Positions 38,139 through 49,711 of a stretch of DNA of 64,000 nt are shown piece by piece. The DNA is from Spirochaetota bacterium (GTDB lineage: Bacteria; Spirochaetota; UBA4802; UBA5550), in the NCBI GenBank assembly GCA_963664815.2, contig CAXXHB010000003.1, positions 1,824,001-1,888,000 of the forward strand, in the 5' to 3' direction. The number at the start of each line of letters is the position of its first letter. Positions within the stretch are counted from its first letter, which is position 1. A program made the position numbers and the translations under genes. Below the pieces are notes generated by a model. The model made no database searches and was not told where the DNA came from. It saw only the letters and a list, made by a program, of their open reading frames with translations.

Positions 38139-39410
38139 ATGAAATATAACAATGTTATACTTAGCCAGTGTCTTGAGGCCCTGGGGCTTGTGCTTGAATA
38201 TGATCTGAATGACAATTCAGCTCATCAGCATGCTATCAGGGTGGGAGAGATGTGTGCTATCATTGCGGAAAAAGTCGGACTAGCCCCTGACAAAATCCAG
38301 CAGATTTATTATGCCGGTCTTATCCATGATATAGGTAAAATAGCTATAGATATTAATATCCTCGGCCAGAAGAGAGAGTTGACGAAGGAAGAATTTGAAA
38401 TTGTTAAAACACATTCTGTAACCGGGGGGAAAATTGCTGCAACACTTCCGGAGCTCAGCGATCTGGCATTCTGGATAAGGTGGCACCATGAAAAATGGGA
38501 TGGAACCGGATACCCGGATGGATTAGCAGGGGCCGAGATACCAATTGAGGTGCAGATACTCAGCGCTGTAGACTGCTTCGATTCACTTCAGACATCGAGG
38601 CTTGACAGGGAAAAACTCTCCGCAGAAGAATCTGAGCGTGTCATCAAAGAGCAGAGGGGGACATCCTTTAATCCGGTTATAGTCGACATGATATCAGATA
38701 TGATCTGGAAAAAAGAAATTGTTCCGGGAAAGTCATCAGATAAGTTCCTTCAGATAAAAGAGAAATATATAAACAGGGATTATATAAGCGGTCCCGATGA
38801 TTCCTGGACAGGCTGGGGTATGTCCGGCATTTACCCTATATTGAAACTTTTTGCCAGGGTAATTGATGCTAAACATGGTTATACGCAGGGGCATTCCACA
38901 AGGGTGTCGATACTTTCAAAATTTATAGCCAAGAAAGCGGGGCTCCCTGCCGCCGATGTTATAAAAGTTGAAATTGCCGGCCTTCTGCATGATGCCGGAA
39001 AAATAAGCATCCCGCACGATGTTCTTGATAAAAAGAACACTCCCGATTCAAATGAATGGGAAATAATTAAAAACCATCCGATGCATTCTTATAACATTCT
39101 GAAAAATATCAATCTGATGAATGAAATAGCGGATATAACAAAACAGCATCATGAAAGGCTCGATGGTTCCGGTTATCCAAATGGTTACAGTGAAAACAAA
39201 ATAGATCTCCTGGCGCAGATAATAGCAATATCTGATTCATTCGACGCAATGACAAGCAACCGTGCATATCGCGAGATGTGCAATGTGGAATCGGCTTTTC
39301 GTGATCTGATTAAAGGTTCAGGCACACTTTATAATAGTGAATTCGTCAAAGTACTTACGGGTACACCGGCTTATTATATCAAAGCGCTTTTTGATATGAA
39401 TATAGATTGA
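38139..39410 (+). CDS. Tandem HD-GYP phosphodiesterase
   Basis: Two HD motifs (HDIGK, HDAGK) and two HHE..DG.GYP motifs. Confidence 0.92.
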   Translation: MKYNNVILSQCLEALGLVLEYDLNDNSAHQHAIRVGEMCAIIAEKVGLAPDKIQQIYYAGLIHDIGKIAIDINILGQKRELTKEEFEIVKTHSVTGGKIAATLPELSDLAFWIRWHHEKWDGTGYPDGLAGAEIPIEVQILSAVDCFDSLQTSRLDREKLSAEESERVIKEQRGTSFNPVIVDMISDMIWKKEIVPGKSSDKFLQIKEKYINRDYISGPDDSWTGWGMSGIYPILKLFARVIDAKHGYTQGHSTRVSILSKFIAKKAGLPAADVIKVEIAGLLHDAGKISIPHDVLDKKNTPDSNEWEIIKNHPMHSYNILKNINLMNEIADITKQHHERLDGSGYPNGYSENKIDLLAQIIAISDSFDAMTSNRAYREMCNVESAFRDLIKGSGTLYNSEFVKVLTGTPAYYIKALFDMNID

Positions 39411-42095: not shown

Positions 42096-43310
42096 TCATT
42101 GTTTTGCAGATTCCTCTTCTATAACCTCTCCGAGACGCATAATTCCCTCTTCAATATCTGACGGTGATGAGAAGCTGAAATTAAGCCTCATTTCATTTTC
42201 TCCACCCTGACCGGGATAAAATGAATTTCCTGAAACATATGCGACATTGCGTTTAAGCGCTTTTTCATGCATTGTCATGGTGTTGATATTTTCCGGGAAC
42301 TTAAGCCACAGGAATAAACCTCCCCCCGGTGTTTCATATAAAGCCGACGGAATAATTCTGTCTATTGCATCTGTCATAAGATCACGTTTATCTCTGTATA
42401 TCTTTTTAACCCTCTCAATCTGCTCATATATTGATCCGGTGTCTATAAACTCATGAATAACAAATTGCGACATTGTATGGCTGCATGTGTCTTCCCCCTG
42501 TTTGGCTATTGTGCATCGTCGTACGGTTTCCTCCTGAGCGTTCAGCCATCCTGTCCGCATGCCTGGGGAAACTGTCTTGGAGAATGAACCGAGGTAGACA
42601 ATCCGTTTTTCAGTATCTATATTCTTAAACGGTACAACATGTTTGTTATCATATCGTATCATTCCGTAGGGATCATCTTCGACAATCATTAAATCATGTT
42701 TTGATGCAACAGAATAAATAGCTTTCCTGCGGGAGTTATCCACAGTAATTCCTGTGGGATTATGAATTGAAGGAATGGTGTAAATAAATCTCGGTTTTTT
42801 CCCGGCAATGATTAACTCGCATATTTTTTTATCAAGCTCCACAGGGTCCATTCCGCTATTGCCTATGGCGAGCGGATGTATCTCTGCCATAAATGAACGG
42901 AAACAGCTTATCGCACCGACGAAGGTAGGGTTTTCCGTGATAACGGCATCTCCCGGATTGAGAAGTACTTTGCATAAAAGGTAGAGTGCCTGCTGAGAGC
43001 CGCTTGTTACAAGTATATTGTCGGGCGATGCTGAAAGGCCGTAAATATGGTACATCAGATCACATATTGATTCGCGCAGCGGGGTGTATCCTTCAGTGGT
43101 TCCATATTGAAACACCGATGATCCATGCTCTGCTATTGTTCTGTCTATTATATCTTTCAGTTCTTCAAGAGGGAAGGCTTCCGGTCCGGGTAACCCTCCC
43201 GCGAAACTTATCATCTGCGGGTTGCCGGTGAGTTTCATCATATCACGGATTGCGGATGATTTCATATTGAGGGATGAATGGGAATAAACTGGGGTATAAT
43301 GGTCATTCAT
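42096..43310 (-). CDS. PLP-dependent class I/II aminotransferase (LysN/ARO8-like)
   Basis: ISFAGGLP, QYGTTEG, SGSQQAL, HNPTG, EDDPY, GSFSKT.SPGMRTGW and MRLNFS. Confidence 0.92.
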   Translation of the reverse strand: MNDHYTPVYSHSSLNMKSSAIRDMMKLTGNPQMISFAGGLPGPEAFPLEELKDIIDRTIAEHGSSVFQYGTTEGYTPLRESICDLMYHIYGLSASPDNILVTSGSQQALYLLCKVLLNPGDAVITENPTFVGAISCFRSFMAEIHPLAIGNSGMDPVELDKKICELIIAGKKPRFIYTIPSIHNPTGITVDNSRRKAIYSVASKHDLMIVEDDPYGMIRYDNKHVVPFKNIDTEKRIVYLGSFSKTVSPGMRTGWLNAQEETVRRCTIAKQGEDTCSHTMSQFVIHEFIDTGSIYEQIERVKKIYRDKRDLMTDAIDRIIPSALYETPGGGLFLWLKFPENINTMTMHEKALKRNVAYVSGNSFYPGQGGENEMRLNFSFSSPSDIEEGIMRLGEVIEEESAKQ

Positions 43311-43419
43311 AAAAGGAACCTCCGCGCCGATAACAGGGGGTGTTTTTAATTATAATATTAAATGCTGCTGTTTTAACTGATGCGGCTTTTGAAGATTTGA
43401 TTGCTGCTGACTTTTTCAT
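43303..43419 (-). CDS. Second Ala/Ile-rich leader peptide (38 aa)
   Basis: AAGGAG RBS; MKKSAAIKSSKAASVKTAAFNIIIKNTPCYRRGGSFYE; overlaps the aminotransferase RBS and start. Confidence 0.6.
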   Translation of the reverse strand: MKKSAAIKSSKAASVKTAAFNIIIKNTPCYRRGGSFYE

Positions 43420-43467
43420 GACAGACTCCTTTATTGTTTTTTATAATGATTCGCAAAAATTTTAACC

Positions 43468-43495
43468 AAAAAAAAGCCCGCTTAATAAGCGGGCT
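43468..43495 (-). terminator. Attenuator terminator upstream of the aminotransferase
   Basis: AGCCCGCTT-ATT-AAGCGGGCT followed by a T run on the minus strand. Confidence 0.85.
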
Positions 43496-43520
43496 CTGTT
43501 TCATAAATATTTATATATAT

Positions 43521-43613
43521 TCAGGAATTTACCCGCAGAGGAATACCGCTGTCGATAGCCGCAGCTGCCGCAGTAATAATAATGCTAATGAATATACAAT
43601 CTGATTTTATCAT
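43521..43613 (-). CDS. Ile/Ala-rich attenuator leader peptide (30 aa)
   Basis: MIKSDCIFISIIITAAAAAIDSGIPLRVNS; contains GCGGGT complementary to the terminator 5' arm. Confidence 0.75.
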   Translation of the reverse strand: MIKSDCIFISIIITAAAAAIDSGIPLRVNS

Positions 43614-43620
43614 ATTAATA

Positions 43621-43650
43621 ACATTAATAAATATGAGGCATAACTGTCAA
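43621..43650 (-). promoter_or_regulatory. Sigma70-type promoter of the attenuated leader
   Basis: TTGACA-18-TAATGT, 7 nt upstream of the leader ATG; no SD. Confidence 0.65.
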
Positions 43651-43926
43651 TATATAAAGTTCATATAAATAAAAAATTGATTTGAACAGGCAAATTTTAA
43701 TTCTGCTTAGACCTGATATTTTATGACAAAGTTCCTGATTTCTATATTTTTTTCCTGTTTCTATGTATTTTATTTGAAAATTTTTAACTCAAGGGTTAAA
43801 TTAACTAATAAAGTGCTTGATTTTAAAAAACCGGATTAACAAAAATGTTACAACAAAAACCTGGTATTTAATAATTTTTACCACAAATTCACCACAAATT
43901 TTTAAAATTCTGGCGGTTTAAATCAT

Positions 43927-44436
43927 ATGAAGCTACTTCGTTTTTTATTTATAATCATAACAGGTTTCTTATTTCTGACGATCAATACCCCGGTGAACGG
44001 AGAGGTTTTAAAAGGAACAGTGGCTCCGGTTTTTAATCTCAGAACGCCGAGAGGGGAGCTTGTGAAACCATTCCAGAGCCAGAAGCCTATGATAATAAGT
44101 TTCTTTTTTACAGATTGTCCGAATTGTAAAATTGAGCTGAAGGCCCTTGAACAGTTTTATCTGAATAATGGTGACAAGGTTGCGGTTTTCATTGTAGGTA
44201 CTTCATTTAAAAAGGATGTTGATGTAGCTGAAGATGTAGATGCCTTTATCAGGGATCTCGGAATAAACATTACTCCTCTTGTAGATAAATATAAAGATGT
44301 GATCAGAACTTATGGTGTTTCAAAATATCCGTCGCTTTTTTTTCTTAACAGTAAGGGGGAGGTTGTTTTTAAATCTGAAGTTTACAGCGAAAAAACAATC
44401 TCTGAGCTTGAAAAACAGTTAAAAACAGTAAAATAA
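43927..44436 (+). CDS. Exported TlpA/AhpC-TSA thioredoxin-fold protein
   Basis: Signal peptide; APVFNL...FF.TDCPNCK.EL; YGV..YP. Confidence 0.85.
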   Translation: MKLLRFLFIIITGFLFLTINTPVNGEVLKGTVAPVFNLRTPRGELVKPFQSQKPMIISFFFTDCPNCKIELKALEQFYLNNGDKVAVFIVGTSFKKDVDVAEDVDAFIRDLGINITPLVDKYKDVIRTYGVSKYPSLFFLNSKGEVVFKSEVYSEKTISELEKQLKTVK

Positions 44437-44450
44437 CACGAGGACTTTCC

Positions 44451-45728
44451 ATGATTAAGAAGATATCCATAGTATTGTTGTCAGTAATGACAGTGTTCTG
44501 CAGTGTTTCGTATGCTGCAAAAGTGCAAAAAAAGAATATTTTTATTAAACCCTTCACTGTGGACGGTAAGGGCGTATCCATGGATTTCACAGATTATATG
44601 TCTGAAGTAATTGTTGAGTATGAAGAGTATAATCTTATTTCAGAAGAGGATGTAAGCGCCCAGAAATCGGCTATTGAAGGTAAAATGGCATCCTCCTCTT
44701 CAGATGTTGATAATGACGCATCAATGAAAGCATTAATGGAGGCTGTCGATTCTGATAGTATAATCTTCGGTACCATAGACAAAAATGATGACGGGTCTCT
44801 GACTGTAATGGGGCGTATTCTTGACCGTAAAACCGGAATCGGCAAAGGGAAAACAATAAAGGTAAAAAGGGCCAGGTATCTGGATATAGCAGCGAGGGCG
44901 CTGGCACACTATCTTATAACAAAAAAAGATTCATATCTTGATGAACTTAAGGAAGATATGGAAGATAAAGAAAAGGGCGTCGCCAAGGCTGAAAAGAAAC
45001 GTAGAAACACGCTGCTCGGAATCGAATCAGATTTTGAAGGTCAGAATGAAACGGTTGCAAAATCACCTTTTATCAGGGTCGGGTACAGCGGTATCGGCGG
45101 CAGTTCATATATTAATGATAAGAAGGTAAATGAATACTATCCGAAAGCCCAGGTGCTTTCTGCTGATCTCTTTGTATACAGGTCAAGGGATATTGTAGGT
45201 GATGGCGTTGATATATATTCAAAATTCATGTACAAGAAGTTTTCATCTGATGATGCGTCAGTCGAAAAGTTTAAGACTGATATGACTGCGCTTAACCTGA
45301 CGACCAATAATGAGAAACTGGCCGGCCAATATCTGATACCTTCCGGCAATACGCTGAAAGAACTTGAAATGATACAGAAGAGCATTGATATCGGCTTCAG
45401 ATTTGTAGGGACATCATATTTTTTAAACGAAGCATGGTCTTTATATATGATGTTCGGTGGAAGGTATATGCAGGTTACTGAAACATACAAAACAACGAAT
45501 TCCATGTTGTTACCGGAAGATTTTAAGAAAAATTTTACCGGCATAGGGGGAGTAGCCGGTTTAGGGTTAGAGGTGACTATAAACAGGTATATGGGGTTAT
45601 TTGCCGAGGTTAATGCCGGTTATGTTCCTATCGGAGACAATAAATTAAATTATGACGGATATCAGCTGATTGTAGGGGCAACACTCAGAAACAGTCACAC
45701 TGAATATCCATTCCTTGGTATTCTGTAA
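44451..45728 (+). CDS. Putative outer-membrane protein (CsgG/DUF2380-like N-domain, coiled coil, beta-barrel)
   Basis: Signal peptide; IIFGTI; alternating C-terminal strands GGVAGLGLEV, GLFAEVN and GATLR. Confidence 0.6.
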   Translation: MIKKISIVLLSVMTVFCSVSYAAKVQKKNIFIKPFTVDGKGVSMDFTDYMSEVIVEYEEYNLISEEDVSAQKSAIEGKMASSSSDVDNDASMKALMEAVDSDSIIFGTIDKNDDGSLTVMGRILDRKTGIGKGKTIKVKRARYLDIAARALAHYLITKKDSYLDELKEDMEDKEKGVAKAEKKRRNTLLGIESDFEGQNETVAKSPFIRVGYSGIGGSSYINDKKVNEYYPKAQVLSADLFVYRSRDIVGDGVDIYSKFMYKKFSSDDASVEKFKTDMTALNLTTNNEKLAGQYLIPSGNTLKELEMIQKSIDIGFRFVGTSYFLNEAWSLYMMFGGRYMQVTETYKTTNSMLLPEDFKKNFTGIGGVAGLGLEVTINRYMGLFAEVNAGYVPIGDNKLNYDGYQLIVGATLRNSHTEYPFLGIL

Positions 45729-45762
45729 AAATCGAAATGATTATTAAACGGGGACTTGCATT

Positions 45763-47013
45763 ATGAAAAAAATATTTTATATACTGACAGCGACAATTGT
45801 GATAATGGCAAATATACCTGCATTAACTGCTGCAGAGAAGAGTATAATCTATGTAAAGAATTTTACTATAGATACCGCCAGCGGATTAAAGGAAAATGAT
45901 CCTGTAAAAAATGAAGTAAAGAACATTATACAGGATGAGTTTGAAAAGGATGGAAGATTTTCTGTAACGGCGGATCAGGATATATCTGCCATGCTTCAGC
46001 AGGAGGCTAAAAGTCAGAGTTTTGGAAAGTGCTCTTCTGAAAGCTGTATTCAGGAACTTATGGAAAAGATTAAAGCGCAGGTTATTGTTTTCGGAAGGAT
46101 AAGAAAGGGTGATGACGGCTATACTTATATTACTGCCCGTTATATGGACAGCACCTCAGGCATACCGAAAGTTACAAAAATCAGGACAATTAAATATAAA
46201 CACAGTGATGATGTTGAAAAGGGCTCAAAAGCGCTGGCGCGCTATCTCATCACAGGCAAGGATGACAAGGTTATAGCTTTTATGGATGAAGTATATAACA
46301 GGGAAGAGGATGAATCCAAATCAAAAAACATCGAGGAAGAGAAACAGCTCGCGAAAAAGAAGGAAGCAGAGTATAATGCGAAGGTGGAAAAGGCCGCAAA
46401 AGAGAGAAAAAATGCCTTAATGTCCCGCTCTCCGCGCTTAAGGGCCGGTTACGGTTTTTTTATGTCAACAGGCAACAAAGATGTGGATGATGTTTTCAAG
46501 GAACAGTCCGGCTATTTTCTGGATATCATGTTTGCAAGAGGCCCTATAAACGAACGTTTTAACCGCGACTGTTATTTCAGGTTTATATACAAAAAATACG
46601 GCATGAACGATGATTCCATTAAATCAAAACCTGTATTGGGAAAAGATGCAATAAATGACAGTACCGGAAAATTTTATGGAATGGACTTCGGCTTCAGGCT
46701 GAAAATAAACAGGTATTTTATGCTCACCGCCTTTGATCCATACGCCCTTGCAGGTATCAGAACCGGGTGGTATACTGAAAAGGCAAAAGACAAATATGAT
46801 AATTCAGATTTAAAGGTTACACTTGGAGGATACGGCGGTTACGTTGGCGGTGGAATGGAGTTTGCTTTCTTTGAAAACCTCGGGTTCTTCGGAGAGTATA
46901 ACCGGGGAATATTCAAGATCGGAAAAGATAAAACAAATATTGAAGGTAACCAGTTCTACGGCGGTGTAACACTGAGAACAGAGATAGAAGAAAGAAGTTC
47001 TTCAAGGTACTAA
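45763..47013 (+). CDS. Paralogous putative outer-membrane protein
   Basis: Same layout; CSSESC; ALARYLIT vs ALAHYLIT; GGYVGGGMEF, GFFGEYN and GVTLR. Confidence 0.6.
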   Translation: MKKIFYILTATIVIMANIPALTAAEKSIIYVKNFTIDTASGLKENDPVKNEVKNIIQDEFEKDGRFSVTADQDISAMLQQEAKSQSFGKCSSESCIQELMEKIKAQVIVFGRIRKGDDGYTYITARYMDSTSGIPKVTKIRTIKYKHSDDVEKGSKALARYLITGKDDKVIAFMDEVYNREEDESKSKNIEEEKQLAKKKEAEYNAKVEKAAKERKNALMSRSPRLRAGYGFFMSTGNKDVDDVFKEQSGYFLDIMFARGPINERFNRDCYFRFIYKKYGMNDDSIKSKPVLGKDAINDSTGKFYGMDFGFRLKINRYFMLTAFDPYALAGIRTGWYTEKAKDKYDNSDLKVTLGGYGGYVGGGMEFAFFENLGFFGEYNRGIFKIGKDKTNIEGNQFYGGVTLRTEIEERSSSRY

Positions 47014-47037
47014 CGGGAAAGGATACAGAGGTTTAAT

Positions 47038-47463
47038 ATGAAAAAAATATCGATATTAATAACGGCAATAATGGCATTACTTGTTTTATCATGCGGGGAT
47101 GGAGACATGCTTGACCCTGCAAAAGGTATAGATTCACTGGGAGATACAACACTTCTTTATGGAACAGTTAAAACAAGCTCCTATTCTCCAACACCAACAT
47201 ATGTTTTGGTTTATAAAACTAACAGTAATTCTTATATACTGGCGAAAATACCGATAGTTAACGGAGAATATGCAGCAAGAGTGAATTTATCAAGTATAAC
47301 TAACTATTGCTATTTACACCTTGCTTCTGGTACCACTATTGCCAATGAAGTGAGTACTACAACATATCCCAGTTCCAAGAAACAATTTTATTCCAATGGG
47401 TCAGTTGACTACGACAGCGATAGACAGAGTGAGTTTGATACTATGTATGAATGGAATTTTTAG
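47038..47463 (+). CDS. Lipoprotein
   Basis: MKK-hydrophobic-VLSC lipobox. Confidence 0.75.
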   Translation: MKKISILITAIMALLVLSCGDGDMLDPAKGIDSLGDTTLLYGTVKTSSYSPTPTYVLVYKTNSNSYILAKIPIVNGEYAARVNLSSITNYCYLHLASGTTIANEVSTTTYPSSKKQFYSNGSVDYDSDRQSEFDTMYEWNF

Positions 47464-48406: not shown

Positions 48407-49711
48407 TTACTTGTTATCCTTTTTCAGTTTTTTATATTTGTATACCTTCATGCCAGGTTTTATCTCATCCCTGCTGCCTGATGATACTTCACATTTTGTT
48501 GTTGTCATCATAGGGAAGGTTGCACGGAGTATTATAATATTATCGCCGGAATAAATGCAAAGTTTGTCACCCATCATCACTTTGCTTGCTATATCTTTAC
48601 CTGCAACTATCAGTTCGTTTTTCGAAACAGATTTCAGTTCACCGACACACTGGCCTGCCAGTTCAAGTGATTGGCTCTGTTTTTCAACTACGATGGGATT
48701 TTTTATATAACCCCATTTATCATCTTTTTTTACCCTTGCCATCCCTTCAGAAAAGAAACCGGCTTCATCAAAGTATGGTTCAATAACATATTTTCCATTA
48801 TTATCGATAAATCCGGCTTTACCGTTGGTTTTTACGCTGGCCAGGCCTTCAAGAAAGTTACCCGCCGAATCATATTGAGGTTGTATTACAACTTTTCCTT
48901 TTTTATCTATATAACCGTATAATCCGTCTTTTTTAATCTTTGCAAGACCTTCTGAAAAATTATCAACATCTTCAAACTGTGGATCAACAGAAAACATTCC
49001 ATTTTTGCCGATGAAACCCCATTTGCCGTTTTTCTTAACTTTTGCCATCCCTTCCGAAAAAGACCCTGATTCATCGAATTGTGGTTCTTTTATAATCTTA
49101 CCCTTTTTATCAATGTAACCGTATTTATCTTTATTCTTAACTTTTGCCATCCCTTCTGAAAAATCGAATGCATCATCAAAATCCGGCTTTATTACAATGG
49201 TTCCCGTTTTATCTATATATCCGTAAATTCCATCCTTTTTGATATAAGCAAGATTTTCTGAAAAACTCCCGACGTTACTGAATTGTGGTTCTATAATAAA
49301 TTTGCCGGTTGTATCTATATAACCCCATTTACCATTCTTTTGAGCATAAGCCAGCCCCTCTGAAAAATCAAATGCTCCATCAAACTGAGGCTTTATTGCA
49401 ACATCACCTTTAACATTTATATAGCCATATTCTCCGTTTTTCTCATAATTGGCCAGTCCCTCAGAAAAAAAACGTGCATAGTCATATTGTGGTTTAATTG
49501 CAAGTTTTCCATCTTTATCAATATATCCAAACTTTTCATCTTTGAAAATAAGCGCCATACCGTCGGAGAAATCTCTTTCATCATCAAACTGGGGTTCAAC
49601 AAGCCAGATGACATTACTGTTTGCTTCAGTCTGGGCATTGCCGTTGATGATTGATGTTGTAACGGCACAAATAGTGATTACTGTCGCAATGAATATTTTT
49701 ATTTTTAACAT
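48407..49711 (-). CDS. WG-repeat exported protein
   Basis: About 8 FSEGLA.V...GKWG(Y/F)ID..G..VI.PQFD repeats. Confidence 0.93.
   Translation of the reverse strand: MLKIKIFIATVITICAVTTSIINGNAQTEANSNVIWLVEPQFDDERDFSDGMALIFKDEKFGYIDKDGKLAIKPQYDYARFFSEGLANYEKNGEYGYINVKGDVAIKPQFDGAFDFSEGLAYAQKNGKWGYIDTTGKFIIEPQFSNVGSFSENLAYIKKDGIYGYIDKTGTIVIKPDFDDAFDFSEGMAKVKNKDKYGYIDKKGKIIKEPQFDESGSFSEGMAKVKKNGKWGFIGKNGMFSVDPQFEDVDNFSEGLAKIKKDGLYGYIDKKGKVVIQPQYDSAGNFLEGLASVKTNGKAGFIDNNGKYVIEPYFDEAGFFSEGMARVKKDDKWGYIKNPIVVEKQSQSLELAGQCVGELKSVSKNELIVAGKDIASKVMMGDKLCIYSGDNIIILRATFPMMTTTKCEVSSGSRDEIKPGMKVYKYKKLKKDNK

Follow-up and report, generated by a model that had tools for sequence, protein, structure and literature searches.

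To our knowledge, alanine has no textbook biosynthetic attenuator. The E. coli ivbL leader contains Ala codons, and an effect of alanine was once reported. The alanine-tuned attenuator found in print is the mycobacterial whiB7 uORF (PMC10274678), which was overlooked when an earlier sequence-only reading of the present locus stated that no well-characterised Ala attenuator was known. It acts indirectly, via WhiB7, and resembles the locus described here in having an Ala-enriched uORF, in stalling that leads to antitermination and in a regulatory loop that ends at an alanine aminotransferase, aspC. The likeness of the B. subtilis at operon is of another kind: transcription and then translation read the charging of one tRNA, and a finished leader peptide shuts the next gene (PMC2311275). 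The reading that we hold for the present locus, with a little more confidence than doubt, is a tandem ribosome-read attenuator. Two serial leaders would both respond to uncharged tRNA-Ala. Transcription would be governed by the first, and translation by the second through ribosome traffic without an RNA switch, or else in the opposite sense (band-pass), and the arrangement would mark a clade of the LysN/MsAT family as alanine-supplying transaminases.

The window is a stretch of 64,000 nucleotides from a Spirochaetota bacterium (GCA_963664815.2, contig CAXXHB010000003.1, positions 1,824,001 to 1,888,000), and the locus occupies 42096-43650 of its minus strand. The parts that had been described there were all found (promoter, leader ATG, Ala run, eight Ile, GCGGGT, terminator, AAGGAG and second ORF). 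A sigma-70-type promoter (43621..43650; TTGACA at 43650-43645, an 18-nt spacer and TAATGT at 43626-43621), recognised from the sequence and its homologues, precedes a leaderless ORF of 30 codons, leader peptide 1 (43521..43613, ATG at 43613), likewise placed by sequence and homologue comparison. Its codons 15-19 form an Ala run (GCG GCA GCT GCG GCT, 43571-43557). The 5' strand of the antiterminator, GCGGGT (43531..43536), complements GCCCGC (43494-43489) in the arm of an intrinsic terminator with an 11-bp stem and a U-tract (43466..43497, stem-loop 43497-43473); this GCCCGC lies 26 nt past the leader 1 stop. A second ORF of 38 codons (ORF 2, 43419-43303), with an AAGGAG SD at 43431-43426 and six Ala in codons 5-19, covers both the SD (GGAGGT, 43323-43318) and the ATG (43310) of a monocistronic class I PLP aminotransferase of 404 aa (43310-42096; Pfam PF00155 above cut-off), with whose start it shares 8 nt. 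Contigs from other sequencing runs agree with the assembly, with zero differences over the parts covered (43146-44100 by contig X3; 43120-43427 and 43554-43708 by contig X4, from a second study). Elsewhere in the window lie a divergent ResA/StoA-like thioredoxin that leads a series of exported proteins of no NCBIfam family (43927-47463, plus strand), a WG-repeat protein (48407-49711, minus strand) and a protein with, by eye, two HD-GYP-like halves (38139-39410, plus strand).

The complete cassette was present in all seven distinct orthologous loci whose DNA was obtained from the enzyme's clade, which are kin rather than independent trials. These loci, with enzymes 59-69% identical, come from six genomes of the family plus metagenome contig L028 (L020 and L021 were dropped as repeats), and the flanking genes in each of the six other loci differ from those in the window. 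The enzyme loci were located by an alignment scan of contigs, a single-protein scan having given no match. The enzyme occurs in 6 of the 64 genomes of the family, and no additional one was found among 122 genomes of the order. No convincing tandem leader was seen before the 28 next-nearest homologues of the phylum, at 27 distant loci (of 160 retrieved) or, by eye, at 10 paralogue loci near 38% identity. When a covariance model was run over the 122 order genomes, matches were obtained in 21. The six strong places were the training loci, and inspection of the 17 weak matches gave one trp leader and otherwise ordinary terminators or unclear cases, with no Ala leader before another gene. A loose DNA pattern searched over the 64 family genomes returned noise, controls being as frequent as matches. 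One 43% homologue, from candidate division FCPU426 (L105), is preceded at a distance of about 200-290 nt by a run of GCA triplets and a stretch resembling a terminator; an ATG-led Ala leader was not found in that upstream DNA. Four outer homologues of the enzyme (L287, L288, L294 and L296) lie directly 3' of other genes, whose C-termini presumably belong in two cases to an indolepyruvate oxidoreductase beta subunit and in two to RtcB.

In 7/7 loci TTGAC sits 35-37 nt 5' of the leader ATG, and a hexamer with A2 and T6 is found 6-7 nt before that ATG. This promoter was absent from the listing of a consensus promoter scan of the window because its TAATGT −10 box matches only 3/6 of TATAAT. The spacing of TTGAC together with the lack of an SD, both seen in all seven loci, places the predicted transcription start at, or adjoining, the A of the leader AUG. 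Leader 1 is 27-30 codons long throughout, and its Ala cluster begins at codon 13-16. Alanine makes up 33 of the 77 residues (43%) of codons 11-21, which is 6.9x its genome use, and none of the 63 in codons 2-10; all four Ala codons occur in the set. Over the same codons 11-21 there are 14 Ile (2.0x) and 9 Val, so that Ile/Val stand at about twice genome use beside the Ala run, and one alignment column is an invariant Ile. The reading frame differs among loci after an IP motif, indicating that the 3' end of leader 1 is conserved as RNA and not as peptide. In the genome of the window, a short leaderless ORF accompanies 549 promoter-like sites. At three of them a terminator and then a gene come next, and of the three only the present locus shows an amino-acid run; genome-wide leader scans of the same genome found no second Ala leader.

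The sequence-only reading had proposed that both Ala and Ile are sensed. The alanine half of that proposal stands, given the 6.9x enrichment in leader 1 and 2.8x over ORF 2, and the Ala run is kept in 7/7 loci. The Ile half does not: enrichment is 2.0x and 0.9x, respectively, and the eight Ile of leader 1 are peculiar to this genome, the other six loci having 2-6. Judging by these codons, the signal of stage 1 is alanine rather than Ile.

GCGGG lies at nt 77-82 from the leader AUG in all seven loci, and the terminator core (AGCCCGC/GCGGGCT plus a T-run) is invariant. The antiterminator is paired in 41 of 42 cells with no compensatory change, and as the pairs of both structures are invariant, the covariation that had been looked to as a test gives no support. 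When the RNA was folded with a ribosome at successive positions, the antiterminator formed with the ribosome up to codon 22 and was lost beyond codons 23-25. With the ribosome on the Ala codons, pairing of the terminator 5' arm was 0.80-1.00 in all seven loci, dropping in all seven to 0.01-0.51 once the ribosome was past codon 25, and a ribosome modelled at the leader 1 stop let the terminator form. Note that the naked leader RNA already folds into the antiterminator. No upstream protector hairpin stood out over nt 25-75 of the seven loci against synonymous resamples, the sole common upstream hairpin being a 3-bp CCC/GGG. As any stall in codons 2-22 would give read-through, specificity would rest on codon bias. 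The hairpin over the Ala run is no stabler than in synonymous resamples (fraction 0.07-0.49), and thus structure does not explain the codons. The geometry of a ribosome-mediated attenuator, as had been claimed, is borne out for stage 1 by a leader, terminator and antiterminator kept in 7/7 loci and by the fit of the ribosome-position folding. Very probably, then, stage 1 attenuates transcription through a stalled ribosome.

The claim of a second Ala-biased ORF over the enzyme start was also upheld. In every locus ORF 2 has an AGGAG/GGAGG SD, an MK start and 36-38 codons, and covers the SD and ATG of the enzyme. The overlap is 8 nt in six loci and 17 nt in the seventh, where the ORF 2 stop is displaced 9 nt downstream. 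The distance from the ORF 2 ATG to the enzyme ATG is 97-109 nt and equals 1 mod 3 in 7/7 loci, and the spacer before ORF 2 varies freely (53-148 nt). The frame is open in all seven loci, with shuffles staying open 8-28% of the time; DNA identity between loci is 56%, as against 50% for shuffles. All 43 Ala of the set fall within codons 2-25 (4.1x genome use), and Ile, at 0.9x, is not enriched. Alanine is the most enriched residue in leader 1 and ORF 2 alike, with synonymous variation in both. The ORF 2 peptides are only 22-38% identical to that of the window, and thus the codons rather than the product seem to be kept. Among 1003 genes of this genome with free upstream DNA, eight have an SD-led ORF of 20-60 codons overlapping the gene start, of which this is the most Ala-rich and the only one with more than three Ala in codons 2-25. 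To judge by its conservation, ORF 2 is real. A duplicate of leader 1 was rejected as its origin, the profile likeness being weak (35% over 8 columns). A frameshifted enzyme N-terminus and a MocR remnant were both rejected, on the inference drawn from an SD of its own for each ORF, the lack of a conserved slippery site or HTH, and NCBIfam MocR matches under cut-off.

Opening the ribosome-binding site of the enzyme costs 4.5-11.8 kcal/mol in the seven loci, a value reached by 28-80% of upstream shuffles and lying between the 36th and 99th percentiles of 500 genes of this genome. The ORF 2 site is easier to open than the enzyme site in 7/7 loci. A G-rich SD belonging to the enzyme itself is retained in all seven loci with ordinary accessibility, and therefore a melting ribosome is not needed. 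Stalls modelled on the Ala codons of ORF 2 made opening cheaper in some loci only, and then by no more than a few kcal/mol, and no conserved switch structure was found by folding between ORF 2 and the enzyme start of the seven loci.

In the scheme that we infer, as regards start site, leader translation, stalling, sign of stage 2 and substrate alike, a 70S ribosome would initiate on the leaderless leader 1. With charged Ala-tRNA present it would pass codon 23 and cover GCGGG, the terminator would form and transcription would stop. With the ribosome stalled on the Ala run, GCGGG would be free to pair with the terminator 5' arm, and RNA polymerase would read through. On the read-through mRNA the SD of ORF 2, strong and accessible, would then recruit ribosomes. 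If alanine sufficed, they would cross, and terminate on, the SD/AUG of the enzyme, suppressing fresh initiation; if it were short, they would stall within the first 25 codons of ORF 2, at least 11 codons upstream, and free the enzyme SD. That stage 2 senses Ala at all seems probable, its sign being surmised. A two-stage alanine gauge with both stages acting in the same direction is the leading, though tentative, reading, to which we give somewhat less than an even chance. A precedent for the occlusion sign is that complete translation of RtpLP prevents translation of RtpA (PMC2311275), and the geometry here is compatible with leader-peptide translation that blocks the next gene in that manner.

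The opposite sign would arise if ORF 2 and the enzyme were coupled by termination-reinitiation behind the same stage 1. Alanine shortage would then throttle translation of the enzyme and give an incoherent, band-pass response: mild starvation would switch it on, and severe starvation would damp it. The 8-nt overlap in 6/7 loci, with the enzyme SD inside ORF 2, is the kind of arrangement in which coupling is usual: start-stop overlaps with an internal SD gave positive coupling in 13 of 14 tested pairs (PMC6728339), and coupling was shown for a uORF behind a riboswitch, that of ppe2 (PMC11260477). The enzyme site is, however, not unusually closed, and in a synthetic test coupling was lost when the second SD was unstructured, since ribosomes could then initiate there de novo (PMC11602170). 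Moreover, coupling in ppe2 depended on a tight overlap and on movement in the forward direction (PMC11260477), whereas the ORF 2 stop lies behind the enzyme AUG. The 9-nt drift of that stop in one locus is the reason why covering of the start fits better than tight reinitiation. We regard coupling as unlikely.

It is unlikely to a similar degree that stage 1 is real and ORF 2 is translated without sensing Ala, serving as a loading ramp or protecting the mRNA from nuclease or Rho, being left over from a duplicated or older leader, or encoding a small peptide. The Ala of ORF 2 are scattered in pairs and short runs, 28 of the 43 codons are GCA, one locus has just four Ala (P 0.06 alone), and the lack of a conserved switch structure fits an ORF without a sensing role. 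On the other hand, a 4.1x enrichment with every Ala confined to codons 2-25 despite near-random DNA identity speaks against this reading, the peptides are too poorly conserved to form a folded product, and the weak profile likeness to leader 1 argues against a relic.

We think it quite improbable that the leaders are general sensors of translation rate or of several amino acids, Ala plus Ile/Val, in the manner of B. subtilis yfmH or the whiB7 uORF, with part of the GCN bias serving RNA structure. It is true that in the folding a stall anywhere up to codon 22 leaves the antiterminator formed, that the invariant Ile column and the twofold Ile/Val beside the run point the same way, and that yfmH senses many amino acids (10.1101/2020.04.20.051573), but alanine alone provides 43% of leader 1 codons 11-21 and, by the resampling of the Ala-run hairpin, structure does not account for the codons. 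Least likely of all is the ACCCCC:GGAGGT anti-SD hairpin of the sequence-only reading, to be released by ribosomes stalled on Ala/Ile codons. In its favour, most loci allow some local hairpin to be drawn at or close to the SD, and in several the site becomes a few kcal/mol cheaper to open once the 5' part is masked. It fails nonetheless: the pairing is not conserved in sequence, no pairing is common to the loci, in none of the seven does opening the site cost more than in upstream shuffles, a ribosome on the Ala codons opens it inconsistently (the cost stays at 11.8 kcal/mol in one locus) and the last Ala in the window lies 8 codons before the proposed anti-SD. With that hairpin gone, control by ribosome traffic is favoured.

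By its nearest solved relatives (1x0m/3aov, 1wst, 1vp4, 2egy and 2zc0), which comprise the Pyrococcus aminotransferase II homologue PH0207, a multiple-substrate aminotransferase (MsAT), LysN and an alanine-glyoxylate transaminase, the enzyme falls into the LysN/MsAT/PH0207 group of class I aminotransferases. Its clade consists of 33 proteins at 56-100% identity, followed by a gap to 45%, and the sources label the members Spirochaetota or uncultured Leptospirales. D212, K245 and R375, which we take to be the PLP and carboxylate residues, are invariant in all 33, and the predicted structure has a mean pLDDT of 80. The label AvtA-like had to be given up, as the enzyme scores 95 bits against a cut-off of 402 (the best AvtA model) and 92 against 467 with the NCBIfam AvtA models, whereas another gene scores 513 against 467. 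The genome of the window separately encodes that AvtA, above the NCBIfam cut-off (L242), an AlaA-like transaminase (L237) and an alanine dehydrogenase, Ald (L312), and no Ala leader was found in the DNA read upstream of these three genes. With such enzymes already present and without such leaders, the need for another Ala source is not evident. Displacement of AlaA by this enzyme was considered and rejected, since an AlaA-like gene co-occurs in 4/6 genomes with the enzyme and the two misses are genomes 77-78% complete. An Ala leader was present at none of the 27 AlaA-like loci examined (of 29), four of them with short upstream DNA. Most likely the cell has recruited a transaminase of broad specificity to supply additional alanine on induction, a role suggested by the leader alone.

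About 200 nt before the AlaA-like gene of a single genome (L255), a TTGACA promoter is followed by a strong GC hairpin without a U-tract. The tRNA-Ala complement of the genome of the window is two TGC genes and one GGC gene, and the genome also has a selenocysteine tRNA (G000:C2 23616-23707, minus strand).

Leaderless or short leaders are used elsewhere in this lineage for Trp, Leu and Phe/Tyr. In the genome of the window a Leu-rich leader peptide and a terminator (L280; G000:C3 3739580-3739760, minus strand) precede a gene that we recognised from its sequence as leuA-like. Between that terminator and the gene lies a further stretch of about 170 nt with hairpin-like sequence and two short ORFs, for which there was no Rfam match. 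A Phe/Tyr-rich leader with an alternating F/Y run and a terminator (L281; G000:C3 41890-42100, plus strand) stands before what we take, again from the sequence, to be a DAHP-synthase-like gene. A relative (L231 1500-1650, plus strand) carries a leaderless Trp leader before a trpE-like gene, with three Trp codons at 16-18, the same promoter spacing, a related terminator and antiterminator, and an Rfam Trp_leader score of 30.6 bits, under the cut-off.

Among known systems, the E. coli leaders trpL, hisL, leuL, thrL and ilvL match stage 1 in their ORF with a run of one amino acid, their competing antiterminator and intrinsic terminator, and their spacing (10.1101/834739 and textbook). In contrast, the amino acid here is alanine, the start is leaderless, there is no clear protector hairpin and a second leader follows. 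In Rfam the locus scores under every leader cut-off (Trp 34.4 against 41, Thr 25.5 against 55 and Leu 24.4 against 50 bits). The whiB7 uORF is longer and diverse, its target is a transcription factor, and it responds to antibiotics as well as to many amino acids (PMC10274678), whereas here a compact Ala run stands directly before the gene controlled, that of the class I aminotransferase. In the at operon the first stage is a T-box and the amino acid is Trp (PMC2311275), in contrast to a ribosome-read leader for Ala whose stage 2 sign is conjectural. No T-box was among 36 Rfam matches up to E 10, and the leader ORF occupies stage 1. The mycobacterial poly-Cys short ORFs are likewise leaderless sensor ORFs with a run of one amino acid, but act by SD-sequestering duplexes (10.1101/834739), whereas the leaderless ORF here would steer a terminator. 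The erm genes with two leaders also have two serial leader peptides before one gene, but stalling there is antibiotic-induced and the leaders have no common amino-acid bias (PMC8274638), whereas both are Ala-biased here. Within the literature covered, largely outside the subscription journals, we found neither an Ala attenuator acting directly on an enzyme gene nor two leaders sharing one bias.

A compact Ala leader directly before an enzyme would bring alanine, and a spirochaete lineage that has received little study, within the reach of attenuation. It also hints at the function of an aminotransferase family whose annotation is difficult. The cassette of about 350 nt is small and portable, and raises the questions of whether ribosome traffic over an overlapping upstream ORF is enough to regulate a bacterial gene and what a cell gains from reading one tRNA a second time. 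Stage 1 has a textbook mechanism; what is new here is the pair of serial Ala leaders with a target of the LysN/MsAT family, and the distinctive part is the second, Ala-rich ORF that overlaps the enzyme.
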